This document shows, in pieces, positions 1 through 40,100 of a stretch of 64,000 nt of DNA. Source of the stretch: a virus (Duplodnaviria; Caudoviricetes); the IMG/VR virus record IMGVR_UViG_3300031519_008340, positions 23,898 to 87,897 of that record; one strand, given 5' to 3'. A program made the position numbers and the translations under genes. Numbering within the stretch: position 1 is the first letter of the stretch; each line of letters begins with the position of its first letter. The notes under the pieces were generated by a model, which was given only the letters and a program-made list of their open reading frames with translations, was not told the origin of the DNA and made no database searches.

Positions 1-302
1 TGGCGCATGGCTTCTATTGCAAGTTTTCTTACAGTATCGTCTGGAACACCTATGTAACTCATAAATGTTCTCATCTTTTGAGTAAGTCTTCTTCCACTCA
101 CGTAACTAGCCTTAAAGCCACAGTTAAAACAATGATAAGACACAGTACCGTCTGCACTGGTCATTATTCCGCCACGTTTTTTCTTGTCTTGTGATTCTCC
201 ATTATGTATACAACATGGAGCATTGAAAGCAATCCAACCAGAAGGAGTTTTCTTTCGGCCCGCAGGCAACGATGTCAGAATAGTAGACTGTATCAGGTTC
301 AT
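1..302 (-). CDS. gp61: DNA primase (T4 gp61-like), N-terminal zinc-binding domain; runs off the window edge
   Basis: Not in the ORF track; translated by hand from ATG at 302: MNLIQSTILTSLPAGRKKTPSGWIAFNAPCCIHNGESQDKKKRGG...SYHCFNCGFKASY. The CC-x-H...HCFNCG Zn ribbon is typical of phage primases. Confidence 0.8.
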   Translation of the reverse strand, partial: MNLIQSTILTSLPAGRKKTPSGWIAFNAPCCIHNGESQDKKKRGGIMTSADGTVSYHCFNCGFKASYVSGRRLTQKMRTFMSYIGVPDDTVRKLAIEAMR

Positions 303-1525: not shown

Positions 1526-1790
1526 TATACCGCAAAAAAAAAGCACGATAACCACCGTGCCATTTAATTTCAACTTTTTTCTTTTTCCAAATAGTTTGCC
1601 ATTCGGGCAAGCAATTGGCTACCCATAACTTTATTTCAAATTCCGGATCCACCTTACATTTTATAGGTCTTCTTGTTTTGCGAACAAGATCAAGCTGTCT
1701 GGCTAATTCAACGCCGTAGTTCCAATCATTAGGTAGGTCTGCTGTGTGAAATTTTGGTTTTTTAGTGAGATTTTTTTTCCGGTTGTACAC
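1518..1790 (-). CDS. Hypothetical basic protein
   Basis: 90-aa ORF, GTG start, overlaps the 3' end of the mini-DnaE gene by 29 nt. Confidence 0.5.
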   Translation of the reverse strand: MYNRKKNLTKKPKFHTADLPNDWNYGVELARQLDLVRKTRRPIKCKVDPEFEIKLWVANCLPEWQTIWKKKKVEIKWHGGYRAFFLRYIK

Positions 1791-2361
1791 TAAAAGTATA
1801 TTTACCTGCGAGGATTAAATTCATCTGAACTACAATTGCTTGAGCATATGCAACAGCGTGAGACTTCTTAAAAAAATAACTTCCGTCAGTAGGCTTAACC
1901 CATACTTCCTTCATTATGTCGTCCCAACTCTTGTTAACTAATTGCCTTTTTGCAGGCCGTATTATAGCCAATACCGCGGCAAGTTGTTCTATGCTGGTTG
2001 GTTGTAGTTTTGATATAATGCTGAAATGTCCATTTAAATGAAACAGTTCATCAACATAACATCTTTCATTTAGTATACGCCAATCTGGTTCTTTAATCAT
2101 TAATTTAACTAACTCTTGTTCACTTTTTACGTTTTTGTAGATACTAACATTTAAACAGTCAATTTTGAAATATCCACGATCCTCGGCTTTTTTATAATCA
2201 AGACTTGCATGACCGGTAACAGGATTAGTTGGAATATTGTGAAAGTATACTCCTGTTTTATGTTTTTCAGTTTTATCTTCTTTTATTATAGTTGCTGGAG
2301 TATGTTGAAATAATTTTAAAACTTTATCTCTATCTACAAAGTCTATGTCTACATCAGGCAT
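1762..2361 (-). CDS. Minimal DNA polymerase III alpha (DnaE, family C)-like catalytic core
   Basis: Collinear DnaE motifs: MPDVDIDF (PDxDxD), KHKTGV, GYFKIDCL (third Asp), LFHL, KLQPTSIEQLAAVLAIIRP, YFFKKSHAVAYA; only 199 aa. Confidence 0.85.
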   Translation of the reverse strand: MPDVDIDFVDRDKVLKLFQHTPATIIKEDKTEKHKTGVYFHNIPTNPVTGHASLDYKKAEDRGYFKIDCLNVSIYKNVKSEQELVKLMIKEPDWRILNERCYVDELFHLNGHFSIISKLQPTSIEQLAAVLAIIRPAKRQLVNKSWDDIMKEVWVKPTDGSYFFKKSHAVAYAQAIVVQMNLILAGKYTFSVQPEKKSH

Positions 2362-2585
2362 TAGTGTAATTTTTTCTTGTTGCGTTTAATAAAATCTTTT
2401 TTGGTTCCTGGCTTTAACAACTCAAGCACTTCTAACATTTTTTTATATCCTTTTGTCTGCTGAATTTCCGGCGACATTTCTGGCAGTATCACTTTGCCAA
2501 TTGATCCATCTTTTTTGATCACGACAACACTGTCTCCAATTTCCATGTCTAAAGTATCATCAATCTCAATATTAATTCTACTCAA
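2361..2585 (-). CDS. Hypothetical protein
   Basis: ORF track gives 2361..2669; the likely start is TTG at 2585, overlapping the upstream stop. Its stop overlaps the mini-DnaE ATG (TAATG). Confidence 0.6.
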   Translation of the reverse strand: MSRINIEIDDTLDMEIGDSVVVIKKDGSIGKVILPEMSPEIQQTKGYKKMLEVLELLKPGTKKDFIKRNKKKLH

Positions 2586-3264
2586 TGTGTGCCTCCTTTG
2601 CAGTTTCTTGTACAAACAAATAATCTGCTGGATAATTTTTAAATTTATTTCGCCAAAATGCTGGATCAATATAAGTTTGTATCATTTGTAATTGTTCGTC
2701 AGTAAACGATTTTAACATTTTTTTACCTGCTTCACAACCTAGCACTATCCATGGCGATATTTTTCCTGATTGTATGTGCTGTACACTTCTGCTGGTATTA
2801 ACCAAACGAAAGTAATCAGACCATTGTACATTTTGTTCCTGTGCCCAATCCATCATTGTTGCAATTGATCTTCTTAGTGCGGCTTCTACAGGTTCAGTCT
2901 TAAGTGTATCCTTTAAGTATTGTTCATACAAATCATCTCTGCTCCAGTGGTCCAGTTTTACTTTTGAAAGTATTACGTAGTCAATATATTTTTCTGGATA
3001 CAAAGGACCAGTGTGCATCATGTAACGACCAAATTTGACAAAAGCATTGTAGTAAGAACTGTTGCAGAAGTCATCATATGTTTTTGTTTTTGTATGCCGT
3101 TGATGTATTTCATAAAATCTTTGAAAAACAATAAATCCGTTTTGCACCCATTTCTCATCTTTTTGTAGATGTCTTCTTTTTGGTTCACACATATGCACTT
3201 GTAAAGTTCTCTCTCTTTGAAAACTTTTATTACAGTAAGTGCATTTAAAACTATTCGATACCAT
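2578..3264 (-). CDS. Zn-finger protein, possible gp59-like helicase loader
   Basis: N-terminal C-x2-C...H-x-C (FKCTYCNKSFQRERTLQVHMC). The C-terminal HIQSGKISPWIVL resembles the remembered T4 gp59 segment LLQSNIISFETFIL. Lies in the replication cluster. Confidence 0.45.
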   Translation of the reverse strand: MVSNSFKCTYCNKSFQRERTLQVHMCEPKRRHLQKDEKWVQNGFIVFQRFYEIHQRHTKTKTYDDFCNSSYYNAFVKFGRYMMHTGPLYPEKYIDYVILSKVKLDHWSRDDLYEQYLKDTLKTEPVEAALRRSIATMMDWAQEQNVQWSDYFRLVNTSRSVQHIQSGKISPWIVLGCEAGKKMLKSFTDEQLQMIQTYIDPAFWRNKFKNYPADYLFVQETAKEAHIE

Positions 3265-3944: not shown

Positions 3945-4431
3945 AGTCTAATTGCTCACATTGTCTCGAGATGTCTTTTACAAAATATGCACACTGAGGA
4001 TCTGGACCATCGGATAACGGCACTGCTAATAACTGTCCTGCTTTAATTTTTGGAAAGTACCACTTAACTTCTGTGTAAATGTCAACTATATCCACATTTA
4101 AAAATTCTGGATGTCCACCAGTTAGTGGGTTGAATAAGAAAGCATCAAAGCCTCGGTCATTCAAACTTGTAATTGGCAAAACATGAAGTTCTCCTTGTTC
4201 TGCTTCACCTATGACCATTTTCCAATCAAGAGGCATTGAAATTTTATATTTGCCAATTTGTAAAACTGCCGCTGGTGCGTTAAAACTTTCTAAAAATATT
4301 AGAGGTATGTAAAAGTAGTCAGGATTGGTTGGATCTGAATTATCTAATACAGCAAACCGCATTTTTTCATCAACCCACTCAGGTATTTTTTCTAGTTTGT
4401 ATGTTTCGTTATCCAGTGAAAGAATTTTCAT
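3928..4431 (-). CDS. Hypothetical protein
   Basis: 167-aa ORF directly downstream of uvsW; no recognised motif. Confidence 0.75.
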   Translation of the reverse strand: MKILSLDNETYKLEKIPEWVDEKMRFAVLDNSDPTNPDYFYIPLIFLESFNAPAAVLQIGKYKISMPLDWKMVIGEAEQGELHVLPITSLNDRGFDAFLFNPLTGGHPEFLNVDIVDIYTEVKWYFPKIKAGQLLAVPLSDGPDPQCAYFVKDISRQCEQLDYGQCF

Positions 4432-5875
4432 AATTTATCTTTTCTATATTATACGGGTAATTTGCCTCTTTGTAAAACTTTTTTCTTTGTGTTAGGTGTC
4501 TTTTTGCAAATTTGCAACTGCTTGTTATATCCCATATTTCTACGTGATCCTTGTCTTTTGCTTTTCTTATACCACGTCCTATTGATTGAATTACTCGTAC
4601 AAATGATTTTCCTGGTTCTATGAGAACAAGATTAAAAATACGAGGAATATTAATGCCAACACTGGCAACTCCATATGTGGCAATAATAATTTTATTCGTT
4701 GCTGTAGATACTTCATCATATTGTTCCTTTCTGTCGGGGTTTTTGGTTGATCCTGATATAAAAACTGAGCCAGGTAATTTTTTCTTTAGGGTTTCACCTG
4801 CACTTATTCTATCAACAAGTATAAGGGTGTTTCCTGCACTTGATATTGATTTAATAGTTTGTGCAACAAAAGACATTCTCCGATCATCAGTTGTAAGCCA
4901 TTTTAGTTCTTCTTGATAGTTTGTAAACATTTTTGTTTCAATTGTTTGTATAATATTAACATTACAATTGGCAAGTACACCTTTGTCTTGCAGTGTCTTG
5001 GCCGCAATTTTGTTAACTACTTCGCCGATGGAACATTTGATTCCCATAAATTCAAAATCTGCTTTTGGCACTGTGCCTGTAAGGCCCCAACGTATACCAC
5101 AATGTGCAAAAGGCCCGGTCAACATTCTTTTTAAAACATCTGCTTTAGCCATGTGTACTTCATCGATTATAATTGTATTAATACCTTTTATTGCTTCTAA
5201 AAAATCTGCTGTGTGATCGTCTTTGCTTTTCTTTTCTAGTATATTCAATGATTGCCAAGTGGCAATTGTGTTGTATCTGCCTAATTCTTTTCTATCACCG
5301 TAATAAACACCTGTGTCTAAATTACAAGCAACAAAGTCTTCTTCTGTTTGTGTAACTAGACTTTTGTTTGGAACAATAGTAAGTGTTCGACCATATGGTT
5401 CGACTAACTGGCACAGTGCCGCTGTAATAATGGTCTTGCCTGCACCAGTTGCGATCTCTTGAATACATTGTGGATTCTCAATAAATTTATTAATTGTTTC
5501 AACTTGATAATCTCTTAACACAATTGGTTGTCCATCACATGGGTGTCCTTTGGGCCAGTTTATATTACTGAGATAATCTTTATCTATTTTATTAAACTCA
5601 AAATTGTGTTTTGTTCTTTGATCTTCAAAATCAACATACACTCCGCCGTCTTCTAGAATTGGCAAAATTTGATCAACCAGGCTCAAATAAGTTGTGCCTC
5701 CTAGTCCAAAAAATGCAATCTTGCCATCCCATCGTCCAAGTTTTACTGCTGGTAAATGTCTTGCATATGGAACTTCATATTTAAATTTGTTGGAAAGTCT
5801 TTTACGCCATTCCAAGGATAAATTTTCAAATTTAACGTTTACTTCGTCTTTGATTACTAGTTTGCATGAACTCAT
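4409..5875 (-). CDS. uvsW: UvsW-like SF2 DNA helicase
   Basis: Q motif LRDYQ, Walker A ATGAGKT, DEVH, motif III GLTGT, motif VI QSIGRGIR. Likely start ATG 5875 (track starts at 5902). Confidence 0.92.
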   Translation of the reverse strand: MSSCKLVIKDEVNVKFENLSLEWRKRLSNKFKYEVPYARHLPAVKLGRWDGKIAFFGLGGTTYLSLVDQILPILEDGGVYVDFEDQRTKHNFEFNKIDKDYLSNINWPKGHPCDGQPIVLRDYQVETINKFIENPQCIQEIATGAGKTIITAALCQLVEPYGRTLTIVPNKSLVTQTEEDFVACNLDTGVYYGDRKELGRYNTIATWQSLNILEKKSKDDHTADFLEAIKGINTIIIDEVHMAKADVLKRMLTGPFAHCGIRWGLTGTVPKADFEFMGIKCSIGEVVNKIAAKTLQDKGVLANCNVNIIQTIETKMFTNYQEELKWLTTDDRRMSFVAQTIKSISSAGNTLILVDRISAGETLKKKLPGSVFISGSTKNPDRKEQYDEVSTATNKIIIATYGVASVGINIPRIFNLVLIEPGKSFVRVIQSIGRGIRKAKDKDHVEIWDITSSCKFAKRHLTQRKKFYKEANYPYNIEKINYENSFTG

Positions 5876-7218
5876 AGTTTTTTTATAGCACGATCCTTCC
5901 ACTGGTAACTTAAAGGTTGTGATGTACTATAATACAACTTTTTTGGAAGATTATCAAGTAGTCTTTTCATTCTTTCTCCGCCTGTATGGTAAAATCCTCC
6001 ACCTATTGCAGTAAGCGAACACTTAAATTTAATATTTGCACGCATTAGTGATCTAGTTAATTTATTCCTTACAAAATAAACTTTAGTGTGTTGGTCTATT
6101 GTTTTAAAACTTTTACTCATTTGATATAAGTCGTAGGCATTTTGCCATACTGAATCTGCCATTTTATAAGGTTTGTTTTGTAAACCACCCTGATCAAGTT
6201 TTGTTGCCCATTTTTCGTCACTGTTTTTGTCTTTCCATTTTTTTGGTTCTTTTAATTCAAAACTAAAACCAAAGTTTTTACCTTCGTCAAATCCGTGCTT
6301 TTTAAAACATTCGAACCAGTCGTGCATGTCTATTGTATCTTCTATATTGTCTGTTATATCTCCAGACACAGGCATTACTAAAGGAAAACAATTTAGTTCT
6401 AATAGTCCTGCAACAATATTATCACGAGTGTATGTGTTTTTATCTATCCACAATGCAGTATTGTTGTTGTGAGCAATTTTATTTGCAATTTGTGTGTTTG
6501 AGTTTACTTCAATGGCACCCTGTTCAATTGCAAAGTTTTTTAAACTATCAAGTTGTAAAATTGTTTTTTGATCTGCAAAATTCGTATTCCAGTAATCTAA
6601 TAATTGGCCATTTACATTTTTCAAAACAATCTTGTTGTTTTTAATTGTTGCATCTGGTTTTTTATATTGTATTTTTAATTTTTTAATTTCTTCGTATTCT
6701 TCTATTAAATTTTCATCTGTAAAAGTAAAGTCATATCTAATACCTATAAGTGTTACGTAGTATGCAGTCACATCTGATTTGGTCACTGTCCAAGTTTTAT
6801 TTTCTCCATCGTACAAAAAATATCCTTCAGGCAAGTTTTTGCCTTTTAAGGTACGTATTAAAGTAACTAACTTTTTGTTATAAGGAAATTTCATAATTAA
6901 TTTTTCGCCATCATCATCCAATTCAGATTCTATAGTTTTTGCAGAATTTATTATTCTAAATGGATGTGCAAATTTTGGGTCATCAGTTAATGATTTAAGG
7001 TCTATGCCATACTTTAAAAATTTTGTAAGGTATCTTTTAACAAAAAAAGTTGCTAATTTTGCCTGTCTTTCTGTCCATGGATATTGTGCTTCGGCTAATG
7101 ATGTTATTGTTTTACGGTCCATGCTGTGAGGAGCCACTGACCCTATGGTCCACGCCCATTCATTATAGGCTAGTATTTTAATTGCTTCGTTAATGGTTTT
7201 TGGCATGTTGTCAGTCAT
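5872..7218 (-). CDS. Hypothetical protein with a possible HARP-like segment
   Basis: 448-aa ORF, first gene behind the sigma70 promoter at 7260-7287; contains MKFPYNKKLVTLIRTLKG...YDGENKTWTV. Confidence 0.7.
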   Translation of the reverse strand: MTDNMPKTINEAIKILAYNEWAWTIGSVAPHSMDRKTITSLAEAQYPWTERQAKLATFFVKRYLTKFLKYGIDLKSLTDDPKFAHPFRIINSAKTIESELDDDGEKLIMKFPYNKKLVTLIRTLKGKNLPEGYFLYDGENKTWTVTKSDVTAYYVTLIGIRYDFTFTDENLIEEYEEIKKLKIQYKKPDATIKNNKIVLKNVNGQLLDYWNTNFADQKTILQLDSLKNFAIEQGAIEVNSNTQIANKIAHNNNTALWIDKNTYTRDNIVAGLLELNCFPLVMPVSGDITDNIEDTIDMHDWFECFKKHGFDEGKNFGFSFELKEPKKWKDKNSDEKWATKLDQGGLQNKPYKMADSVWQNAYDLYQMSKSFKTIDQHTKVYFVRNKLTRSLMRANIKFKCSLTAIGGGFYHTGGERMKRLLDNLPKKLYYSTSQPLSYQWKDRAIKKL

Positions 7219-12013: not shown

Positions 12014-12336
12014 TATTTTCCTTTAAAATATTTGTCAATTTTGTTTTCTTCATTCTGATGTTTTTCATAATCAGGCATTGGATCTTTTTTTGTTGTAATC
12101 TGTTGCCATTGTTTCGCCCATTCTCCGTTGAACTTTACCCATTCCTCCGTGCCTTCTTCGTTGTCTGACTTTATTGCGTCTTCAGGACACTCAGGTTCGC
12201 ATACGCCACAATCAATACATTCATCTGGATTAATGACCAGCATATTTTCTCCTTCATAGAAACAGTCAACAGGACAAACTTCTACACAACTTGTATGTTT
12301 ACATAGAATACATTTGTCGTTAACAATGTATGTCAT
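12013..12336 (-). CDS. fdxA: FdxA-type (7Fe/8Fe) ferredoxin
   Basis: [43 protein letters not shown]. Confidence 0.92.
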
Positions 12337-13319
12337 TACAAACCTAATATGGATTTAAATCTTTTATAAACTGTGCCGTCTTTGATTTCTTTAATGCTCC
12401 ACATCTTGTATCCTAAATCATGCAACCATTGCGTTCTATCAGGCATTTCTGGAGTTTCAATCTTTGTTAAATCTTTATTTGCTACAGGCCAACAAAGTGC
12501 AAGATCGCTAGTACAAAAGGTAGGAATCCCCCTAATGCAGGAGTCAGTTGAGGCAGTAGAATTGTGAGTAACAACAGCATGGCAATTAGTTATTGCTTGT
12601 TGGAAATGAAATCTATAGTGCTTTTTCTCATCTCCTTTAAAATGTTTTTCTCCAATATGCACATCAACATCACTTGGAAATTCGTTACGTCTCTGTTCAA
12701 TGTTAGCAACATTATTTGGATGTGGTCGAACAATAAACTTTCTTTTTGTAAGTGGCCTTAATTTTTTATACACGTCTTTAAACCAATCTATTGGATCTAG
12801 TTCGTTCATGCTCCAGTTGTCTTTTGGTTGTAAAACAAACAATATAGGATCTTCTAAATTTGATTTTCTCCACTCTTCGTGTTTAACATTGAAAAGTTTT
12901 TTCATCATTTCCCATCTATCAGAGGGTGAATTATTTGATAAAAAGTTTCCGTTATTCATAGGAGTGTTTAAAGCAACTCTAAAATGGTGATCTGGTGATG
13001 TAGAAACATTGCCAAAGCTAGACAGCACTCCGCCATCAAAAGTAATAACGTGTGTACCTTTTTTCTTTGCTCTTTCAACTAGATCTAATCTTCTTCCTTT
13101 GGTGTGATGTCTTTGATTTGTACCACCGTAACCAAACATTACGGCTATAGGTGCTGTTGGTTCCATTTCATTTTCTACAGTTGGGCCAGTTAACCTTTCG
13201 TTTACAATTACTGGTTCGTCTCCAGCCGCTTTGACTCCTTCAGCCATTTGATACAGTAGCTCATAACTGTTGCCTCTTCTACGATCTTTAACTGTTCTTC
13301 TAAATATTTCAACCTTCAT
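12336..13319 (-). CDS. KpsS/KpsC-like glycosyltransferase, paralog 2
   Basis: [43 protein letters not shown]...EIKDG. Confidence 0.6.
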
Positions 13320-18848: not shown

Positions 18849-20282
18849 TTAACCTACAGATCCTTCCATGCTTATTTCTAGCAGTTTATTTGCTTCTGCG
18901 GCAAACTCCATTGGTAATTTTTGAAATACTTCTTTACAAAAGCCACTAACCAACATATTAATTGTGTCTTCAGTTGGTATGCCTCTTTGCATACAGTAAA
19001 ACATCTGCTCGTCACTCAACTTGCTTGTGGTTGCTTCGTGTTCACAAGTTGAACTGCTGTTTCTATTTGATATCACAGGCACAGTTGAAGCACTACATCC
19101 TGATCCCATCATTAAACTGTCACACTGAGTAAAGTTTCTACTGTTGGTTGCCCGTTTCATTATCTTTACTTCTCCACGATAGGTGTTGGCACTTTTGCCT
19201 GCACTTATACCTTTTGATATGATTGTGCTTTTGGTGTTTTTGCCTATGTGTATCATTTTGGTTCCTGTGTCTGCTTGTTGTCTACCATTGGTCAAAGCCA
19301 CACTGTAAAATTCTCCCACACTGTGATCACCCATTAAAATACAACTTGGATACTTCCAAGTCAATCTAGATCCTGTTTCAAACTGTGTCCAAGTTATCTT
19401 ACTGTGTTTTCCTATGCACTTGCCACGTTTGGTAACAAAGTTGTAGATACCACCTTTGCCTGTGATAGGATCTCCAGGATACCAATTCTGTATAGTTGAA
19501 TACTTTATTTCTGCATTATCCAACGCAACCAATTCAACATTGGCGGCATGCAATTGATTCTCATCTCTCATAGGTGCTGTACACCCTTCAAGGTAACTGA
19601 CATAACTGTCTCTTTCTGCTATGATAAGTGTTCTTTCAAATTGTCCTGTGTTGGCCGCATTTATTCTAAAGTATGTTGATAATTCCATTGGGCATCTTAC
19701 TCCTGGTGGAATATACACAAAGGATCCGTCTGTGAACACTGCACTGTTTAAGGCCGCAAAACTATGGTCACTGATCGGGATTACCGAACCCAAATACTTT
19801 TTTACTAGTTTAGGATGGTTCTGCACTGCTTCACTAAAACTGCAAAAGATGATTCCCATCTTTTTTAATTCATCTGAAAAGGTTGTAGCGACTGATACAG
19901 AATCAAATACAGCGTCAACAGCCACTCCAGCAAGTTTTGATCTTTCATGTAAAGGTATTCCTAGTCTTTCAAAATCCTTCTTGATCTCAGGATCAACTTC
20001 ATCATATGATGCAGGGCCTTTTTTTGGTGCTGAGTAATAACTCATTGCTTGATAGTCAATGGGCTCAATGTCTAGGTTGGCCCAATTAGGTTTTTTTAAA
20101 ATTTTCCATCTGTCAAATGCTTTTAGTCTAAAATTTAACAACCATTTAGGTTCTTTTTTAATTTTACTAATTTGTCTTACAGTATTTTCGTTAAGTCCAG
20201 GGGGTAAAGTTTCAGATTCTACGTTCGTAGTAAATCCTGCTTCATATTTTTTGTCTAGAGTTTTTTGAAGTACGTCCTGCAT
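18849..20282 (-). CDS. sufB: Fe-S cluster assembly scaffold SufB
   Basis: [64 protein letters not shown]; full length, no intein. Confidence 0.96.
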
Positions 20283-21034
20283 TATACTTTTTTAATAGGA
20301 AACATTTTGTATTGTCTGTCTGTAACTTCAGCAATGATGTTTATGCTTAATCTTTCTGTCTCAGAATTTAATCTTGGAGTCACTCCATGCACAGCTCTAT
20401 TTGTGTTTAAGAACATTACAAAACAATTTGGCTTATATTTTATAGTTTTAACAACTTCTCTTTTTGTTTTTTCTAACAGTTCTCTACCGTTTTGTCTTGA
20501 TACTTCAAACACAGGATCAGATTTGTAAATTACAAAATCTCCACCTTCTGCTTTATCTTCAGGTTTACGCATATACAATAGTCCTGCATAAATTTCAACA
20601 GGATTATCCAAATGATCAGTTCTTGTTGTTTCTTTTACTGGATTATGTATAACAAATTGTGTTTCAGTAACAACTTTGCTTTCTCCCGAACCTCTTACAG
20701 CAACTTTTTGTTGTTTTAAAAAGTCTATATGTTGTATATGTTTTTCAAACAAATTTAAAACCTTACTATAATATTCTTGGGAGGTATGAGCTTTAAAAAA
20801 GTTTTCCCAGTCTTCAGATACAGGCACAATTTTTTTATTCAATACATCATTAGACATATATCTAAAAGTGTGTCCGCCGATAATTTCAAGTTTGTCTTTT
20901 ATTTCCTGTACTGGCCAATTGTTGTATAATTTTTTATATACGTCTTCGGGTAGTGCATCTTCTATTATTACGTGAGGATACGGATCTTCAAAGTAGTGTT
21001 TGGCAGGATCAAATTTGTCTAATACTGTAATCAT
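20282..21034 (-). CDS. 2OG-Fe(II) oxygenase
   Basis: DHLD (HxD), [13 protein letters not shown]...AVHGVTPR...RLSIN. Start ATG 21034 overlaps the upstream TAA; its stop overlaps the sufB ATG. Confidence 0.8.
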
Positions 21035-21708
21035 TAACTTGAAAATAGGTTGATTAATTCTTTTTTCCACACGTCGGCATATTCGCACTCTCTGTATCCA
21101 TCAAACCATGGACCACCCTCTGTGTAGTGTAGTATTTTTGGTTTGCCATCTTGTGGTTCTTTGTACCACTCAACAAGCCAATTGTATTCTAGAGGAAGTT
21201 GTCCAATTTCATTGTCTTCCAACCAACTAAATCTGTGTAAAAATTTTGCATCTTTTTCGTTTAGTAATTCTGGAGTGAGCAGTTTGTTCTTTGGATGTTC
21301 GCAGTTCCAAAGCACCATGCTTGACCAATTTTTTCTAGGATATACTGTTTGTACTTGCCCGTCCATTTTTGTGCCTTCTTTGGGTTTGTAATCGTGTTGC
21401 ACACAGACAACTGCTTTCGATGGGTCACAGTATTTTACTAATTCATGACTAGGAATTTGCCATACAAAATCACAATCACAAAACACTGCCCAACCTTTAA
21501 AATCGTTTAGGTAAGGAATAAAAAATCTTGTAAATGTAAATTCTGTAGATGCTAATTTATCAACAGGTCTGGTGTACATACCCTGTTCTCTCATCTGTCT
21601 TTGTTTTAATGGTATAACTTCAGCTGATGGGTCTCTTCTTTTAATACTGTGTTCACACACTTGGTAAGCAATATCTTCTCTGCTGTCGTGTCCTACATAA
21701 ACTTTCAT
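21034..21708 (-). CDS. GT8-like glycosyltransferase
   Basis: MKVYVGHDSRE, STEFTFTRF, FCDCDFVW (DxD), RKNWSS, ILHYTEGGPWF. Start 21708 is 5 nt after TAAATA. Confidence 0.75.
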   Translation of the reverse strand: MKVYVGHDSREDIAYQVCEHSIKRRDPSAEVIPLKQRQMREQGMYTRPVDKLASTEFTFTRFFIPYLNDFKGWAVFCDCDFVWQIPSHELVKYCDPSKAVVCVQHDYKPKEGTKMDGQVQTVYPRKNWSSMVLWNCEHPKNKLLTPELLNEKDAKFLHRFSWLEDNEIGQLPLEYNWLVEWYKEPQDGKPKILHYTEGGPWFDGYRECEYADVWKKELINLFSS

Positions 21709-28981: not shown

Positions 28982-30511
28982 CTATTTTATGTATTTTCTA
29001 CATTCTTCTAATTGTGGTATATAGGCCGCTAATTTTGAACCTCTATGTTTGTCTAAGGTATCGTTATAATAGAAGAAGTTTTTTAATTTTTCTTTGTCAA
29101 ACTTATTATTTTTAGAATAATGATCGTAAAGTCCATCAACCATAGTCCTTGACCCTCTTTCTTGATGATAATAGCATTTTGTTTGTTTTGCTTTTTGTAA
29201 ACTTTTTAAAATCATTTCTCTATTAGGATGGTTCAACGCTGATAAAATATCATTTCTGTACCCAGCGTAATTAAGTTGTATAGTAGCATAAGGAAACTCT
29301 TTGTCAAAAAAATTCATTGTTTCTCCTATCTCATGGACAGTGTACATAGATAATACTGATATAATGTGTATGCCTGCCCCGTTCTTTTTTAACCTGTGAA
29401 TGTTTTCAATTTGTTTTTTACTTGTTGTCCCCCATCTAACATATTCTGTAGTTTTTCCTATGCCGTCTATACTGCAGGTAAACCATAATTTAGGAAACTT
29501 TGAAAAAAGATCAAAAAGTTTGTCACTTATTTTTACTGCATTTGTATTGATATTAATTTCAAAATCTGTTTTTCCTTTGGCAATACATTTACGTAAGAAT
29601 GCGTAAACCGATGGCATTACCGTAGGTTCACCTCCTGCAATATAAATTCTTACCATTGAGTCTAAATTTACTAAATTAAAACTAGGAGTGTTTACAATTG
29701 GATCTGTTTCTGGTCTTACTATTGATTGAAATTTTTTGTCTTGTATTTTACTTGTCTCTTCTGCTATAAGATGACTCCATTTAGGCCTACACATTCTACA
29801 TTTTAAATTACATTTGTTTGAAGGTCTAATTTCAAAATACGCAGGATCTTTAATTTTTTTGAGATCGTCTGGAGATTTTATTTTTAAACGTGTAATCCAG
29901 TCAAAAGAATCAGTCCATCTCATGTCTCTCATTCCTTTTTTTTCAAAAAAGTAACACTCCCTACAGCCAGAAATTTTTTCTCCTTTTAGCATTTTATTCC
30001 TAACTTTACTATATGCTGGATCTGTTTTCCAATTTACTATATCTTCTCTTTTTTTAATTTTATCCCAATTTCTTCCACATAAATTTGTATTGCCGTCTTG
30101 CCCATCGTGCATCAGTATCCAGGGATTCATACAAATACTCTTATTGTTACTGAAAATCTTTTCCCAATTATCAAGGTATGCCATATTATTTTTGTTAATA
30201 ATTTCAAGTTTCAAACCCAACGCTTCCATGTCTTTTACAAGTTTCCACATTGCTAAAAAAATACGTGAGTGTGAAAATTGTTCTTGTGTTTGATCTAGTA
30301 AAACTATTTTGTCAAATTTTTTAGCACTTTCAATAATGTCTTTTTGTTGGGAAATAACTGGGCCTGCATAATAACAGCCTGCTTCTAATTTATTACTTTC
30401 TGGTAGGGCGCCTCTAAATGTAATACTATTTTCCTTAGCATATTTTTCAGTTAATTTGTGTCCCCACGCCTTGCCAGACGAGTTGTCAGCCAAGCATAAT
30501 ATTTTTTGCAT
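28982..30511 (-). CDS. Radical SAM protein with N-terminal SPASM/twitch-like Cys cluster
   Basis: NKCNLKCRMC (CxxxCxxC), IAGGEPT, NTNA, SIDG; upstream CMNPW...LC...CREC. Confidence 0.88.
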   Translation of the reverse strand: MQKILCLADNSSGKAWGHKLTEKYAKENSITFRGALPESNKLEAGCYYAGPVISQQKDIIESAKKFDKIVLLDQTQEQFSHSRIFLAMWKLVKDMEALGLKLEIINKNNMAYLDNWEKIFSNNKSICMNPWILMHDGQDGNTNLCGRNWDKIKKREDIVNWKTDPAYSKVRNKMLKGEKISGCRECYFFEKKGMRDMRWTDSFDWITRLKIKSPDDLKKIKDPAYFEIRPSNKCNLKCRMCRPKWSHLIAEETSKIQDKKFQSIVRPETDPIVNTPSFNLVNLDSMVRIYIAGGEPTVMPSVYAFLRKCIAKGKTDFEININTNAVKISDKLFDLFSKFPKLWFTCSIDGIGKTTEYVRWGTTSKKQIENIHRLKKNGAGIHIISVLSMYTVHEIGETMNFFDKEFPYATIQLNYAGYRNDILSALNHPNREMILKSLQKAKQTKCYYHQERGSRTMVDGLYDHYSKNNKFDKEKLKNFFYYNDTLDKHRGSKLAAYIPQLEECRKYIK

Positions 30512-30526
30512 ATAATGTTATTTAAA

Positions 30527-32122
30527 CTATGTGCCGAGGTTGGCAAAAATAGGCATTGGTGCTGTGTATTCAGATGTTCTATTGGTCCATTGCTCAAATA
30601 TTTGTGGATCAAAATCTGCTAACACCTTAATCATACGAGTTGCTAACAAACAAGAACTTACAAGATCGTCGTGTTCGCCGGGCTTGCCTTTGTAACTTAC
30701 TCCTGAAGCAACAAAGTTTTTTAATTCAGATATAAGAGGTTTTGAATTGAGCTCCATTTTATTATTTTCAACAAGTTCTTTGAATTTTGCACAGGCATCA
30801 ATTTTATGTTTTGCTGTTGTGTTAAATCCTCTTCTAAACTTACGTCTGTGTCCTTTTCTAATAGGTTCACTTAAAAATGCACCCATTATGTTTTCTTCAC
30901 CTATGTCCATGACTCTGTTTAATGCCGCTTCACCAAGTGTGTTATTTTCCATACTGTAAAATATACTAGGGTTGGCAGTTGAATCTTGTTCTATTATTGT
31001 TTCGTGAATATATTTTGTAATACTTTGTAAAATTCTTATTTGATGATTAGCGGGTGTGGTGTTATGATGCCATTCGGCTACCTGTTTAAATGTAGGTAGT
31101 TCAAATACCTGTATGGCCGAGTAATCACCACCTGATCCTAGTGATGGATCCAGGGCCACCATATAGGTGTGTTTAGGTTTTGGTTTTGAGTACCATCTAA
31201 CTTGTCCTTGATTTAATACTGGGTCAACACCTTCAAGTTCAACTAATCTCACACTTGATATTAATGTTTCATCGTAAATTAAGAATTCACATTCGTGTTC
31301 CCTTCTAAATCTTTCATCGCCAATTCTTGACTTTTCTTGTTCTGCCCATGCTTCATCTCTGTCAGGGTGTTCCGACCAATGGGCTTTCATGGCATAAAAA
31401 CCGTTTGTGCCTACAATATTGTCATTGCCAAAGTCATCATATCTTTTGCAGGCTTCTTTCCATATCAATGCAAATTGATCTTCATCTGAATTAGGCGTTG
31501 AGGTAATTAGACATTTTCCTCCTGTACTCAAAGTTGGAGACAGTGAAGTCCAAAACTCAACTGCTTTTTCAGGTGGTTGAACGAATGCAAACTCATCACA
31601 ATATATTAATGTCAAGGACATACCCCGTCCTGTGTTTTCTGTTGTGGTGGTTGCCATAATTTTTGAACCGTTATCAAATTCAATACTGTTTCTGTTGTAC
31701 TGTGTTACACCTGCCTTGATCCAACTAGGCAACATTTCATAGGCATAACGCACTCTTGACATGATGTCTGATGCACCTGCATATTTGTGTGCCGCAATTA
31801 GTATTTGAGAATCTGGTTTAAACATGGCGTACCAAATTAGATATCCTGATGCACAGGTTGTTTTACCAGTTTGTCTTGGTAGCATAGCAATACTAAACCT
31901 ATGATCATTGTAACTTTGTATTAATCTTTTTTGATAATCAAAAGGTTTAAAAGACATTGATCCTTTAGTAGGATGTTGAATCTTCATAAAACTTTCCATA
32001 AAGAAAAGTGGACCAACTTTTTCGTCCATACATTTTTCAAGTTGTAACACTTGATCTTTTGTATATTTGTGTTTCTTGTGCGCCTTTTTAATTTGGTCGC
32101 TGTCTAATGATACATACGCCAT
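30527..32122 (-). CDS. gp17: Terminase large subunit
   Basis: LPRQTGKTT, IYCDEFAFV, ITSTPN, FRREHECEF, nuclease ALDPSLG...DYS, GEHDDLV. Confidence 0.95.
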   Translation of the reverse strand: MAYVSLDSDQIKKAHKKHKYTKDQVLQLEKCMDEKVGPLFFMESFMKIQHPTKGSMSFKPFDYQKRLIQSYNDHRFSIAMLPRQTGKTTCASGYLIWYAMFKPDSQILIAAHKYAGASDIMSRVRYAYEMLPSWIKAGVTQYNRNSIEFDNGSKIMATTTTENTGRGMSLTLIYCDEFAFVQPPEKAVEFWTSLSPTLSTGGKCLITSTPNSDEDQFALIWKEACKRYDDFGNDNIVGTNGFYAMKAHWSEHPDRDEAWAEQEKSRIGDERFRREHECEFLIYDETLISSVRLVELEGVDPVLNQGQVRWYSKPKPKHTYMVALDPSLGSGGDYSAIQVFELPTFKQVAEWHHNTTPANHQIRILQSITKYIHETIIEQDSTANPSIFYSMENNTLGEAALNRVMDIGEENIMGAFLSEPIRKGHRRKFRRGFNTTAKHKIDACAKFKELVENNKMELNSKPLISELKNFVASGVSYKGKPGEHDDLVSSCLLATRMIKVLADFDPQIFEQWTNRTSEYTAPMPIFANLGT

Positions 32123-34670: not shown

Positions 34671-35047
34671 TAGTCAACTATGTTTCTTGATACAACGTCT
34701 TTAGCAGTTCTATTTGTTCTTACTCCTAATCTACTAGACTTGTATCTGTTGGCATTAAGAATTGTTGAAACTAATTCTGAAAGTGTTGTGGGATTAGCAT
34801 AAGTCAATGAATCAAGTATTTTACCAATTGGTGTGCTATCAATTTTTGCCTGTTTAAGAATCATATATGCGGTATCTTCAGCAGTTTGTCTTGAGAATCC
34901 TCTCTTAACAAAAAAGCCAATAGTAGAATCATAATCATTTACATTAAATTGGAATTTTTCTTGATACACATTCTTGACTAAATTGTCTTGTGTCTTGTCT
35001 AAACTGTCTTTGTCTTTTTGTGGAAGATTTGAATAAAATTCACTCAT
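34670..35047 (-). CDS. Hypothetical protein (tail/baseplate module)
   Basis: 125-aa ORF coupled to gp4 and to the upstream gene. Confidence 0.6.
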   Translation of the reverse strand: MSEFYSNLPQKDKDSLDKTQDNLVKNVYQEKFQFNVNDYDSTIGFFVKRGFSRQTAEDTAYMILKQAKIDSTPIGKILDSLTYANPTTLSELVSTILNANRYKSSRLGVRTNRTAKDVVSRNIVD

Positions 35048-36453
35048 TATACATTAACCTTTTCTGCTGTTATACTAACGTTTTGTGTGTTTCTACTTAT
35101 TTTTAAATATCCAGTAGCAACTAAATTATTCACTTTAGTATTGACTTGATTTCTATATACATCTTTTGCAATATTACTTAGAGCGGCATATGCAATGTCA
35201 CTTTCGGCTATTGTAATATTATTTCTAGATCCTACTTGTTGATAGTACAATGCGGATGCAACTTTGTCTTTTGCAATTTCATTAGTAGTAACTAAAGTTG
35301 TTGCTTCGGTAGGAGTTAAAAAATCACCGTAACTTACATTGGCTGTAGCAACAACATTTGTGTTAGTAGCGTTGTTGCTGTCAATATATCCTTTTGCTGT
35401 GGCAAGAGCCGCAACTGTTGCAACATTGGCAACTGCGGCACTTCCTACACTGAAGTTTCCTACAGGATTAGTAATTGTGCCGGCTTGTTTGCCAAAATCA
35501 ATTACTCCTTCTTTTACAATTCCTTTTATTTCTTCTTTGACTGCATCTTTGGCCTTAATTTTTTTTGCATTGTTGTAAGTGTTGATGCCTCTCAAAATTG
35601 TTGCCACACTAAAATTATTGTCGTTAATATCTCTTATAACAGAACCAATACCGTCCACTATACCTCCTGGACCAAATATGCTTGTAGTGCCTCCACCTAA
35701 TACTGATAAAGGAGAAGGTTCCAAGTCATAATGTATTTTTGCAAAACCAGGAACGCCGTTATTTTTTACAAGTCCCGCACCATATAGAACTGTTTCATAA
35801 AATATTTGCATAGTATTTTGCATAATCCCTTGTCCGTCTGTTTGGTCAAGATTATCATGAGACCATGATCCAATGACCGGATTAACCAGTGTGAATGATG
35901 TAAATCTTTGTTTGTGTAAACAAAATATTTCTATGTTTTTTAAGAAAGGTTTTTTTCTCTTTTGGGCACCATCTCTTCCGTATTGAGTAACCAATCCATC
36001 ACTTAGTGGATCATACATATTGTCTTTAGTATTATTGCCGTTCAGGCCAAACTCTGCAGTCAGAGAATCTGCTATGTTGTATTCATAATATGCTTTCCAA
36101 AAAGCATTCACAGTATCGGCATGATCGTCATGGAATGTAATTGTCACAGGTGCGTAGCTTATTTTGGTTCCTATATAAGTTTTTTTATTGTACTGTTGCT
36201 TTTCTTCTAAGTTCATGTCAAATTTTGGAAGGTCAGCATTCTTTACTAACATATTAAGTTCTAATTGTTCGTTGTTTGTAAATGCTCTGAAAGGAATAGT
36301 ATTGTCAATGTTGAAAACTGTATGAAATAAAAATTTCTGTTTTGGTAAAAGTTTAAAGTTGTCATCAAGATACAATCTCGAAGCATGACGATAATCTTTC
36401 ATGCCGGGTAAACCGTTTGAAAATGAATTTAAAAAGTTGTTTATACTTGGCAT
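35047..36453 (-). CDS. Tail-tube-fold baseplate/tail tube initiator-like protein
   Basis: LVKNADLPKF...YAPVTITFHDD resembles the gp19/gp54 fold. Start 36453 is 5 nt after TAAATA (track starts at 36471). Confidence 0.55.
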   Translation of the reverse strand: MPSINNFLNSFSNGLPGMKDYRHASRLYLDDNFKLLPKQKFLFHTVFNIDNTIPFRAFTNNEQLELNMLVKNADLPKFDMNLEEKQQYNKKTYIGTKISYAPVTITFHDDHADTVNAFWKAYYEYNIADSLTAEFGLNGNNTKDNMYDPLSDGLVTQYGRDGAQKRKKPFLKNIEIFCLHKQRFTSFTLVNPVIGSWSHDNLDQTDGQGIMQNTMQIFYETVLYGAGLVKNNGVPGFAKIHYDLEPSPLSVLGGGTTSIFGPGGIVDGIGSVIRDINDNNFSVATILRGINTYNNAKKIKAKDAVKEEIKGIVKEGVIDFGKQAGTITNPVGNFSVGSAAVANVATVAALATAKGYIDSNNATNTNVVATANVSYGDFLTPTEATTLVTTNEIAKDKVASALYYQQVGSRNNITIAESDIAYAALSNIAKDVYRNQVNTKVNNLVATGYLKISRNTQNVSITAEKVNV

Positions 36454-36471
36454 AATGATATTTATGGCCAT

Positions 36472-37175: not shown

Positions 37176-40100
37176 TTAGTTCCCTAAATTTGCAATCTCT
37201 CCTGTGTTTTTAATTCTTAATGGTATGTAGATAAATTCAACTGATTTAACTGGCTCAATTGCTATGTCAACATATAGTTCATTTCTGTCTATTCTAGTAG
37301 GTGTGTTGTTTGTATCATCACAAACTACTAAGAAGTCAAATAATGCTCTTTGTCCAACAAGTTCTAACATGAACGATTCAATTGCTTGTTTAATTTCATT
37401 TCTAGTTAATTGATCATTAGGTTCGAATATGAAAGGTTTTGCAATAGCATCTAATTGTGTTCTTAAAAACACAACCAATCTTGAAACATTTATTCTGTCA
37501 AGAGCTGATGTACCCGATACTTTAGTTAAGTTTCCAAAGTTTACTATACCTGCTCCGCTAAAGAAAGTAATTGGATTTATTTTTGCTGTGTGTAATGCAT
37601 CTCTAGTTGATTCAGTTAATGACACTGCTTCAAACTCGCCAGTAGCACTGTCTATGTGACCTACTCCTGTTGCATTGTCAACAATACCTCTTCTAGTACC
37701 CGCTGGTGCAAACCATGGGAAGCCAATGTTGTCGTTGTTTGCCAACACTCTTAATATCATGTGTGCTGGTGGAACAACAATTGCTGTACCTGTGTTGTCT
37801 GTAGTCTGACCTGAAGGATAAAATATTCCTAATTGGTCACTTGCAGATGTTAGGCCGTCTTCGCCGTCGCTTGTTGCGCCTGCTGAATTATTTGCCCAGT
37901 TGCTCACTGCTGTTGATGTACCTGCCAGTCTTAATGGTGTGTCACCTACTACAAACGCTGTACTGTTTCTGTCTGTGTTTAGGCCAATCATGTTAGATAT
38001 AACTTCTGGGTAACCAGGACAAGCAATAACATTAAATCCTCTTTGATCTTCTCTAATGGCTTGGTTTGTATCTATCTCTGATTTTAATTGATTTACAACA
38101 ACTTGTCTCTGTGCTTTTCTTCCAAAAGTTCCAGAACCGTCTGCATTATTAGTAGATTTTGTAACCCATCTGTCTGGATAGTAATTGTTTACTGTTTCGT
38201 TACTTTGTCTTACGTTTCCTAAGCCAGTTGAACCCGAACCTGGGTATACAGTTGTTGATATGTAATTGTTTTTGTATTCTTTAACATTGTATCCTGATCT
38301 TCTTGTGTTGAATAACAATATAGATTGTGGAAATAAAGCCGGATCAGGAGCATCTGGATCTAAAAAGTCATCGCTTAAAAGATCTTTTATTGAACTTGCT
38401 GTTCCTGCACCTGTAGCACTGCCTGGTTTAGCATCTGCTGTGGTATGATATCTTGCATCTGCAAATAGAACTCCGTCTTCTGTTGTTTGATCTGCTTTGT
38501 CAATTAGTTCAAATTTAGCACCTGTTGTTGTAACAGTTGTTCCATTTGAAGTGTTTGTTGAACTTATTGTTGCAGATGTGTTGTATCTGTAAAGTTGTGG
38601 ATAGTTTTCTAAGTCTGACGTGTCAATCCATAAGTCATTGTTAGCCAATGCTGTACCATCTGATTGTGTAGTTGGTTCAGTTGCACTAAACTGTGGACCA
38701 TTTGGATCTGTACTTGCATAAACTTCTAAGTAACCTTTGAACGTTGTACCATTGTGTACCATGATGTCAGCATCTAAGTTTGTATTGTACCATAATGTTC
38801 CGTCTGCTGGTTCATTTGTTGGTTCAGTTGTTGATGCTGTGTACGATAGACGCTTCCAATTTGTTGCAATTATTGTTGCTGGAAGTGCTGTTGAATCTTC
38901 TGTAGCACCTGCTGGTACATCATAAAGATTGTCTATTAATGTTGATGAATTTGTTGTGAATGTGCCATACGAATGAGCAGTTGAGGCACTAAAGCCTGCA
39001 GTTGCTAATGGAGTATTGGTTACATCATACATTCTAATCTCACCACCTAGTTTGTGTTTGATTTGAATTGCACCTTTGAATTGTCCTGAAGACACCACTG
39101 ATGCTTCAACGTTTGTAAATCCTGCACTTGATATGCCTGCTACAAAGTCTTCTGCGTCTGCAACTGTTGAACCATCTAAGTTGGAAACTGTTACAGTCTT
39201 GCTTGAAAGTGCCGCTTGTCCTTTTATAGATTCAGCCATAACAAAAGTACCCTGTAATGCAGTTGCAAATGTAGTTTTTGAAGTTACAATTGTTTCTCCA
39301 CCTTCGTATCTTAATATTTGGAAATCACCTACTGGTAATGTTACGTCAGTGTCGTTGACAGCAGTTTGTTCTGTAACATTAAATTGTGCATATAAGTCGC
39401 CTGCTGTTAATCCTGTTCCACCTAAGTTTGGATCTAAGTTGAAAATAGCAGTGTGGTTGTTAGCATACATTGGTGTACTAACTGTACTGAAAGAAGCTGT
39501 AGTTGAACTGTATAATTTTGAAATTATGTCAGTTCCACCATTAGGTGTTGTAGTTTTAAACCAAACCGATCCTGTTGGTCTGTCATCTTCTGCAGTTTTC
39601 CAAGTTGGTCTGCTAGAGTGTGCCGCTTGTAAAAATTCTGCACCTTTATAAGTGCCTGCTGTGATACCTGTTGTTGTTAAAATTGTACCTGTGCCAGCTT
39701 CGATGTCTATTGTGTTAGCACCGCCTACTGAATCACCATAGTTTGTACCGTTGTGATAAATTTCAACTTTTCCTGAAACTGCATCAACTGCCGCTGTAAC
39801 ACCTGGAACTGCCGCATTGTTTATTGAAGTTGCTAAGTTTGCAAAAGTTGTTCCTGATAAGGTTACTGTAACTCCATTTATAACAATCGTGTGTGCGTTT
39901 GTTAATGTGCCTGATGTTGCAGTTCCTTCAATTGTTGGATGACTAATGTGCCAATCAGTTGACCCTACTTGTACCCAACTGTTGGCGTCGTTTTTAAAAT
40001 ATATTGGATTAGTTACTGTTGTAGTGTTTATAGCGTATTGGCCTTTTGAACCATAACTTGTTAAAGGTGCTCCTGTAGTTGAACCTCCTACTAAGTCACT

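Follow-up and report, generated by a model that had tools for sequence, protein, structure and literature searches.

The question raised by this locus is whether a protein of only 199 amino acids (aa), encoded on the minus strand of a 64,000-nucleotide stretch of a Caudoviricetes virus (IMG/VR record IMGVR_UViG_3300031519_008340), can by itself be a miniature DnaE-type (family C) DNA polymerase. The stretch, called the window below, comprises bases 23898-87897 of an 87.9-kb IMG/VR contig whose CheckV completeness is 23%. A reading made earlier from the letters alone (the sequence-only reading) had proposed such a miniature DnaE with all three catalytic aspartates. The analysis showed that the open reading frame (ORF) is the C-terminal unit (phrog_11778, here the C-unit) of a split minimal polymerase III (Pol III) alpha, a kind of protein known since 2021, when it was published as 'split minimal Pol III'. 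The three aspartates are retained as proposed. The ORF is not a whole polymerase, however, since the GS segment of the palm is encoded by a separate gene or, in a few proteins, is fused to the C-unit. With considerable confidence, we read the ORF as encoding the C-terminal subunit of a minimal DNA polymerase of the C family (Pol III alpha-like) that is specific to phages and made of two pieces.

The ORF consists of 199 codons starting with ATG, and the plus-strand translation of the same interval was full of stops. The coding sequence and its conserved elements were located as follows.

1762..2361, minus strand: coding sequence of the C-unit, 199 aa, the C-terminal part of a split minimal Pol III alpha, predicted to bind Mg2+ and template (ORF, phrog_11778 match, AlphaFold2 model, and ratio of nonsynonymous to synonymous substitution rates, dN/dS).
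2338..2358, minus strand: codons P2-F8 (PDVDIDF), the strand with catalytic D3 and D5 (Escherichia coli D401/D403) at the extreme N-terminus (conservation, alignment).
2158..2166, minus strand: codons K66-I67-D68, the third catalytic aspartate and its partner lysine (E. coli K553/D555; profile alignment to 2hnh, K553-F-D555).
1954..2010, minus strand: codons of residues 118-136 (KLQPTSIEQLAAVLAIIRP), finger-base helix ending in R135-P136 (aligned with E. coli alpha ~620-640 and with residues 293-314 of a 577-aa DnaE described below).
1843..1878, minus strand: codons of residues 162-173 (YFFKKSHAVAYA), the fingers K-S-H motif (E. coli K758-S759-H760; aligned with E. coli 754-765, YGFNKSHSAAYA).

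The order of motifs along the chain was MPDVDIDF (residues 1-8), KHKTGV (33-38), KIDCL (66-70), LFHL (106-109), KLQPTSIEQLAAVLAIIRP (118-136, of which residues 128-136, AAVLAIIRP, form the end of the finger-base helix) and YFFKKSHAVAYA (162-173). All motifs listed in the sequence-only reading were therefore present in the order it gave, and the profile and structure matches described below indicate that they are not there by chance. The protein begins naturally at MPDxDxD, as had been noticed, and nearly all of its relatives start there too.

Profile searches placed the protein in a known family. Against PHROGs, residues 3-185 of the C-unit matched positions 8-193 of the 197-position profile phrog_11778, labelled 'DNA polymerase' (E 6.8e-69), and a search of the contig with phrog_11778 matched the C-unit at E 2.1e-70. 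A weak local match was also obtained to phrog_405, a DnaE family of 1190 positions. No Pfam family was matched at E <= 0.01, PF07733 (DNA_pol3_alpha) being below threshold. The single sequence found no match in the PDB, and the profile of the C-unit family, run against PDB sequences, matched Pol III alpha chains and nothing else (E ~1e-5). In that alignment K66/D68 fell on E. coli K553/D555, the IRP helix on ~632-640 and FKKSHAVAYA on 756-765. A tblastn search detected the C-unit in 96 phage records; coverage was >=80% in 95, and identity was <60% in all. All 96 records were large myoviruses of the RaK2/121Q/PBECO4/GAP32/CBB/PA5oct/Atu_ph07/SCTP-2/Xoo-sp13 type; some carry the label 'DNA polymerase' or 'DnaE-like DNA polymerase III alpha', which bears out the earlier expectation that short DnaE-like ORFs are annotated in related large phages. 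A megablast search of phage records with the first 8 kb of the window found no close genome.

The split minimal Pol III alpha was described computationally in phages of the RaK2/121Q/PA5oct/Atu_ph07 type ('group 2.2' jumbo phages) (Iyer et al. 2021, Viruses 13:63, PMC7824862). According to that study, a phage with the minimal version has no Pol III domains besides it and depends on a family B polymerase, which the minimal Pol III may assist when one strand is made or when DNA is repaired (Iyer et al. 2021, PMC7824862). Full-text literature searches found no later paper on the split minimal Pol III and no biochemical test of it, in line with the remark in the sequence-only reading that no biochemical function was known.

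The predicted structure agreed with the family assignment. The AlphaFold2 model of the C-unit, built on a 90-sequence alignment, had a mean predicted local distance difference test score (pLDDT) of 95.8 and a predicted template modelling score (pTM) of 0.88. In a Foldseek search with this model, the 14 best PDB matches were all Pol III alpha of the DnaE type, followed by PolC. With VIA-align, Z scores of 6.4-10.1 were obtained to 16 C-family polymerase chains over 185-197 of the 199 residues, compared to 3.3 for the next, unrelated fold. Residues 1-192 of the model corresponded to residues 400-786 of E. coli alpha, 461-860/871 of Thermus aquaticus alpha and 971-1328 of PolC. Thus 192 residues stand for 387 of E. 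coli alpha, and there is no counterpart of the PHP domain, the clamp-binding motif, the helix-hairpin-helix (HhH) or the OB domain. The thumb of E. coli alpha reportedly spans residues ~433-510 in the 2006 domain boundaries of Lamers et al. Judged by these boundaries, the thumb of the predicted C-unit model is cut to a short helix and a hairpin, and the finger insertions are gone. The structure prediction called for in the sequence-only reading thus yielded a model that superposes on Pol III alpha. Two further statements made there also held: the thumb and most of the fingers are deleted internally, and the PHP and C-terminal domains are absent, with nothing before or after the equivalent of E. 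coli 400-786. The C-unit is the second half of the palm, with the DxD strand and the strand of the third aspartate, together with a stripped finger base (IRP helix, K-S-H).

The C-unit is abundant and strongly conserved. In a large protein database, its homologues in the 109-349-aa band formed >5,900 clusters at 90% identity; the best 120 of these were 196-204 aa long, and many came from Tara and other marine samples. Clustering at 50% identity left 448 representatives at E <= 1e-3, nearly all of them 185-215 aa long and matched from within residues 1-10 onward. Ninety full-length representatives, 29-52% identical to the query, were aligned; K66, D68 and P136 were conserved in 100% of them, and D3 and D5 were present in 88 of the 90, the other two being gapped there. 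D7 (96%), H34, G37, R135 (98%) and H168 (97%) were all conserved at 96-98%, K165 at 91% and A173 at 92%. The catalytic aspartates D3, D5 and D68 are thus essentially invariant among homologues. In the marine clade to which the contig belongs, all 73 distinct coding sequences began with MPDVDIDF. The median proportion of nonsynonymous differences (pN) in this clade was 0.107 compared to 0.74 for synonymous differences (pS), and the median dN/dS was 0.06 over 439 pairs with 0.05 < dS < 1.5, synonymous sites being near-saturated. The cluster counts, the uniform architecture and the low dN/dS show that the C-unit is neither a pseudogene nor a recent breakage product. The view that the gene is streamlined rather than truncated or pseudogenised was therefore upheld, and the dN/dS comparison proposed along with it gave a value of ~0.06 across marine relatives.

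What the C-unit does not contain became clear from a comparison with an unsplit DnaE encoded on the same contig.

Contig 19324-21057 (= L004:5325-7058), outside the window and 4.6 kb from the C-unit, minus strand: 577-aa DnaE without a PHP domain (Pfam).

This protein matched DNA_pol3_alpha (PF07733, E 1.7e-40, residues 35-244) and DNA_pol3_finger (PF17657, E 2.2e-16, residues 260-386), and it was the sole match when the contig was searched with PF07733. TRGSAGS and LPDVDIDF motifs are both present in this protein, as is a C-terminal extension of ~190 aa, and its gene directly follows genes for endonuclease III and a DnaB-type helicase. The chain of the C-unit begins in the middle of the Pol-beta-like palm, at the DxD strand; the GS (GRGSS) nucleotide-binding segment of the palm is not part of it, and no GRGS-type motif was found in the ORF. 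The MPDVDIDF of the C-unit corresponds to residues 115-122 of the 577-aa DnaE (LPDVDIDF, seven of eight residues identical), and C-unit residues 31-137 correspond to its residues 200-315. The first 122 residues of the 577-aa DnaE matched a different family, phrog_11127 (171 positions), with the alignment reaching the end of the profile just before DxD.

The phrog_11127 protein, here the N-unit, is encoded by a separate gene of ~170-180 aa in RaK2, Phosso, PA5oct and SCTP-2, and likewise in Atu_ph07, Xoo-sp13, GAP32, 121Q, CM1, XaC1 and the 141-kb Alishewanella phage Slicko01; over all, N-units were 157-183 aa long. Both units were present in all 11 complete cultured genomes having the C-unit, as was a family B polymerase. 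N-units end with W-G-x-G-R-G-S-S-V-x-S...E-F-L-K/N-stop, at the place where the contiguous DnaE runs on as FLNP-x-R-x-x-PDxDxDF. By profile comparison, this end corresponds to residue 109 of the 577-aa DnaE. Of the two units, it was the N-units that matched positions ~16-99 of PF07733, and they matched no more of it than that. The genes of the two units were never adjacent in the mapped genomes. In Xanthomonas, Stenotrophomonas and Alishewanella phages the spacing was 11-15 kb, on one side; on the other side, a spacing of 31-44 kb was seen in RaK2, 121Q, GAP32, XaC1 and PA5oct as well as in several IMG/VR contigs. The distance exceeded 110 kb in SCTP-2 and others. In RaK2, whose N- and C-units are ORF162 and ORF124, the N-unit gene sits between those for topoisomerase gp52 and clamp-loader gp44.

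The Alishewanella phage vB_AspM_Slicko01 (OQ508956.1), which is not a jumbo phage, encodes the two units 11 kb apart together with a family B polymerase that is apparently split into frames of 578 and 322 aa. Since it carries both units, the mini-Pol III system is not limited to genomes >200 kb.

Natural fusions of the two units were also found. An exhaustive search of the representatives yielded P0175 (375 aa), in which residues 190-370 matched the C-unit and the layout was that of an N-unit (...GVGRGSSSASL...IKEFIK) joined through a nine-residue linker to ADFDIDT.... Two more fusions of 376 aa, P0272 and P0273 (78-81% identical), came from other assemblies. Such fusions are rare, with three clusters compared to thousands of split forms, and lie on metagenome contigs of 2.4-5.8 kb. 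As 'Rosetta-stone' proteins, they give independent support for the two units acting as one enzyme. A further candidate, P0121 (350 aa, on a 2-kb contig), had an unrelated N-terminus and covered only the last 61% of the query; it was judged to come from a chimeric contig.

The structure of a natural fusion was also modelled, on a small alignment (A6) that was checked column by column; other MAFFT alignments mixing N-units, C-units and fusions were discarded because they forced the N-units onto the C-half. Residues 82-375 of the fusion model corresponded to residues 279-773 of E. coli alpha and 307-800 of Mycobacterium tuberculosis DnaE1, with Z scores of 13.8-18.7 to the same 16 C-family chains, compared to 10.1 at most for the C-unit alone and 2.7 for the next fold. 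The first ~80 residues of the N-unit had no DnaE counterpart and were poorly modelled. With the N-unit added, this predicted structure has the palm from its first elements onward, and the structural score is almost twice as high.

We propose the following mechanism. With neither the GRGSS segment nor the first palm elements in its chain, the C-unit alone would be unable to bind a deoxynucleoside triphosphate (dNTP) in a productive way. The ~170-aa N-unit would supply the GS-motif loop and the first palm elements, dock onto the C-unit and complete a shared beta-sheet and active site. The heterodimer would then be a small, non-proofreading, DNA-templated DNA polymerase; this activity is suggested by the retention of the K-S-H motif and by structural neighbours that are DNA polymerases only. 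The histidine of the motif (H760) is the sugar-discriminating residue of E. coli alpha. Because thumb, clamp-binding, proofreading and OB modules are absent, the mini-polymerase would probably be distributive and error-prone unless held by replisome proteins. Within a T4-like replication and repair module (UvsW, gp61, gp41), it may serve as an auxiliary polymerase beside the main replicase. Such an auxiliary role, speculative but the likeliest, could consist in extending primers after gp61, in filling gaps or in synthesis linked to DNA damage.

Several results weigh against the two-piece polymerase. The N-unit was not found in the 87.9-kb contig, either by profile search or by a regular expression for the GS motif applied to all ORFs, which detected only the 577-aa DnaE. 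Nor was it found in 31 related IMG/VR fragments, in which the profile touched only a DnaE of ~565 aa. The search was extended by a contig walk of ~115 kb with exact-protein look-ups, which led from a C-unit 81% identical to ours, on an 88.8-kb marine contig, to contigs of 194 and 189 kb. The walk passed genes for DnaB, endonuclease III, the 565-aa DnaE, radical-SAM and sugar-modification enzymes, ClpP, DNA ligase, ribonucleotide reductase and ClpX, and it was screened with a regular expression and with a hidden Markov model built from N-units and fusions; recovery of the C-unit and the DnaE served as positive controls. No N-unit was detected within ~105 kb downstream of the C-unit on these long contigs of the clade. 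In addition, two near-complete IMG/VR contigs, G033 (359 kb, 94% complete) and G043 (349 kb, 100%), contain an N-unit and no clear C-unit; the only trace in G043 was a stop-interrupted match of 12 bits, 5 kb from the contig end. Loss, extreme divergence or assembly gaps could account for the missing C-unit, and the two contigs are a mild warning that the N/C pairing is perhaps not obligatory or universal. The fusion model was of moderate quality only (pLDDT 70.7, pTM 0.67), since just the small verified alignment was used for it. Finally, the auxiliary role is drawn from gene context only, and polymerase activity is a prediction for all members of the family.

The weight of the negative searches depends on how much of the genome was covered. 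Including the 62 kb upstream in the window, the N-unit-negative span around the C-unit amounts to ~167 kb. A span of this size would catch the N-unit in ~12 of the 21 genomes in which both genes were mapped, the two being spaced more widely in 9 of the ~21. The genome of the marine lineage is probably ~380 kb, with more than half of it unsampled. For these two reasons the absence of the N-unit lowers our estimate only moderately, and the N-unit of the marine lineage probably lies in the unsequenced part of the genome. Marine contigs that do carry an N-unit (G046-G048) share few genes with the contig, at 27-56% identity, and G044 is a sister lineage with a C-unit that is 50% identical; none of the four speaks for or against an N-unit in this exact lineage. 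The small 'NARGD' gene, which comes next after the N-unit in RaK2, SCTP-2 and Phosso, had no homologue in the contig. For the family B polymerase, no PF00136 match was obtained in the contig or in the 31 related fragments, all of which are incomplete, and no gene in the ~167 kb around the C-unit was labelled as one.

The pairing of a C-unit with a DnaE of ~565 aa was stable across contigs of the marine clade, the only lineage with both among those examined. Eighteen IMG/VR contigs with an N-unit, and the four cultured relatives tested, all lacked so long a DnaE. The closest phage relative of the 577-aa DnaE was a 575-aa gene of an uncultured 484-kb phage (LR756508.1), 38.5% identical over 94% of the length; in that phage a family B polymerase was present and the split units were not found. 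The pairing runs counter to the 2021 study, in which phages with the minimal version were said to be free of any further Pol III domains. The C-unit is still assigned to the split family, as that statement is a descriptive generalisation and not a structural criterion. The 577-aa DnaE may be the main or a repair polymerase of the marine lineage. The 577-aa protein was also considered as the parent of the 199-aa ORF, and was set aside as a distant paralogue because the similarity between the two is at motif level only. The sequence-only reading would have given way to a full-length DnaE in close relatives with the ORF as its broken remnant; a separate long DnaE does exist at a distance of 4.6 kb, but the ORF did not arise from it by breakage. 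The search of the rest of the genome that it recommended, for a separate polymerase or missing DnaE domains, likewise succeeded in part: it yielded the 577-aa DnaE, but neither an N-unit nor a family B polymerase in ~167 kb.

These findings leave a small chance that the marine lineage, a very abundant one, operates outside the 2021 model, with a T4-type replisome built on C-family polymerases only (the 577-aa DnaE and the mini-polymerase, without a gp43-type family B enzyme), with a C-unit that has no N-unit of its own and is, for example, complemented in trans, or with both.

It is improbable, to a somewhat greater degree, that the marine C-unit has lost its N-unit and is now a non-catalytic DNA- and metal-binding accessory or works with the 577-aa DnaE. 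The coexistence of a C-unit and an unsplit DnaE 4.6 kb apart on many contigs, in this lineage only among those examined, and the ~167 kb without an N-unit would fit such a loss. However, the catalytic aspartates and the dNTP-side residues are under strong purifying selection in the marine lineage, which an accessory would not need, and the 577-aa DnaE has a complete palm and hence no need of a donated half. Moreover, more than half of the ~380-kb genome has not been sampled, and the two units lie farther apart than the searched span in nearly half of the mapped genomes.

That the 199-aa chain is a stand-alone polymerase or primer-extending nucleotidyltransferase, binding metal, primer-template and dNTP by itself, is very unlikely. 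The three aspartates and the finger motifs are conserved, a compact single-chain fold is confidently predicted, and the failure to find an N-unit in ~167 kb of the marine lineage would be explained. In contrast, the model starts in mid-palm (E. coli ~400), and the chain has no GS segment, which in Pol-beta-like nucleotidyltransferases holds the triphosphate; that segment is a conserved separate gene in all 11 complete relatives and is fused to the C-unit in three natural proteins.

Still less credible is a Pol-beta-fold nucleotidyltransferase that is not a templated polymerase, such as a terminal transferase or a signalling-nucleotide synthase in phage-host conflict. The absence of thumb, clamp-binding and duplex-binding domains would suit such an enzyme, but the structural neighbours were solely C-family DNA polymerases (other Pol-beta-fold enzymes, TUT7 and mtPAP, gave Z <= 2.7), the DnaE-specific finger motifs including K-S-H are kept, and the C-unit lies in a replication block, with the RaK2 N-unit beside gp52 and gp44. 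That the ORF is a pseudogene, or was recently broken off a full-length DnaE, as the longer DnaE nearby and its abrupt opening at the catalytic motif might suggest, can be dismissed as next to impossible given the same ~200-aa architecture in >5,900 clusters (448 at 50% identity), the dN/dS of ~0.06, the motif-level likeness to the 577-aa paralogue and a gene order shared from Klebsiella to Agrobacterium phages.

The two-piece polymerase therefore remains our reading, and the C-unit gene stands in a conserved neighbourhood. The order UvsW helicase, several small genes of unknown function, C-unit, a small gene on the opposite strand, a structural protein, gp61 primase and gp41/DnaB helicase was found repeatedly, and the arrangement from UvsW to primase and helicase is kept in Klebsiella, Sinorhizobium, Pseudomonas and Salicola phages (including RaK2, Phosso, PA5oct and SCTP-2) and in marine metagenome contigs. 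The following features of the window belong to this block and to the module next to it.

2361..2669, minus strand: small ORF upstream of the C-unit, its stop overlapping the C-unit start codon by one base (ORF list).
4409..5902, minus strand: UvsW-type superfamily 2 helicase, upstream anchor of the replication block (ResIII/DEAD/Helicase_C; phrog_16 DNA helicase; RaK2 orthologue annotated uvsW).
1..302, minus strand: 5' part of a gp61-type primase, downstream anchor; the full protein of 334 aa runs off the left edge of the window (weak Toprim_2 match).
28982-30511, minus strand: 509-aa protein with a radical-SAM-like match, between structural protein and terminase.
30527-32122, minus strand: large terminase.
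35047-36471, minus strand: tail tube.
37176-40604, minus strand: tail sheath of 1142 aa.
60444-62168, minus strand: portal.

The small ORF at 2361..2669 had no Pfam or PHROG match; its counterpart in relatives is a gene of 63-84 aa (marine contigs; Phosso gp436) with the same overlap arrangement. The full primase ORF is L004:9196-10200, and the syntenic genes of RaK2 and PA5oct are annotated as DNA primase. The terminase, tail tube, sheath and portal genes indicate that the replication block adjoins the structural module of a contractile-tailed phage. Two neighbours named in the sequence-only reading, the primase and UvsW, were thus confirmed by domain and PHROG matches and by the RaK2 and PA5oct annotation. 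A third, described as gp59-like, was not, as Pfam gp59_N had no match in the contig. The minus-strand gene at window 2578-3264 encodes a protein of 228 aa whose N-terminus holds a C2H2-type zinc finger (below the Pfam threshold); the protein belongs to phrog_11058, whose gene is kept just upstream of the C-unit across the group. This protein or its neighbours may have been mistaken for a gp59-like protein.

Other genes of the marine contigs were recorded as well. A 113-aa ORF at window 12016-12354 (contig 35913-36251, minus strand) has homologues, 52-64% identical, on several marine contigs that carry an N-unit (L131, L137, L168, L173, L178, L184), where they follow the N-unit gene at ~4 kb downstream; the position varies by lineage. 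Downstream of the replication block, marine contigs L299-L312 carry genes for several radical-SAM/SPASM enzymes, TctA and DctP transporter components and a TonB-dependent receptor. Host-like genes on these contigs also include ClpP/ClpX/ClpS, HSP20, SufBD, ThyX and a class I ribonucleotide reductase, together with the ribosomal protein genes L7/L12, S21 and a weak L33.

No derivative of the bacterial replicase fold is known that is smaller than the split mini-Pol III, with its ~290 structured residues over two chains. Conservation of this enzyme extends over a large group of big phages that are abundant worldwide. If the two pieces do form an active polymerase, the smallest catalytic core of the C family would thereby be defined, and T4-like replisomes would have a second, non-family-B polymerase, comparable to the division of labour between PolC and DnaE or between Pol delta and Pol epsilon. 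The presence of the marine mini-enzyme alongside a compact unsplit DnaE, the natural fusions and the conservation figures are new here. The fusions back the two-piece model and offer a handy single-chain construct for biochemistry.

Compared with known systems, the protein is closest to the split minimal Pol III alpha (PHROGs 11778 and 11127), with which it shares the profile, the ~200-aa architecture starting at PDxDxD, the conserved residues and the position between UvsW and primase/helicase. The marine lineage differs in adding an unsplit 577-aa DnaE, and the N-unit and family B polymerase were not found in the regions searched. With bacterial DnaE (2HNH, 2HPI, 5LEW) and PolC (3F2B), the C-unit shares the second half of the palm, the finger base, the three aspartates, K553, the RP helix and K-S-H. 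In contrast to these enzymes, it has about one sixth of the length and lacks PHP, thumb, distal fingers, clamp-binding motif, HhH and OB, and the phage palm is divided between two polypeptides. The unsplit PHP-less phage DnaE proteins (577 aa here, 575 aa in LR756508.1, and the 'DnaE-like' proteins of actinophages) have the C-family palm, the identical PDVDIDF, no PHP and a place in the same replication block. They differ in having one chain, a complete palm, a thumb-sized insert, a Pfam finger domain and a C-terminal extension of ~190 aa. The intein-split DnaE of cyanobacteria is likewise encoded by two distant genes, but there the break lies in the fingers and split-intein halves splice the products to a full-length DnaE. 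In the phage enzyme, it is the palm that is interrupted, immediately ahead of the DxD strand, and both units are fully taken up by polymerase structure, leaving no room for an intein.

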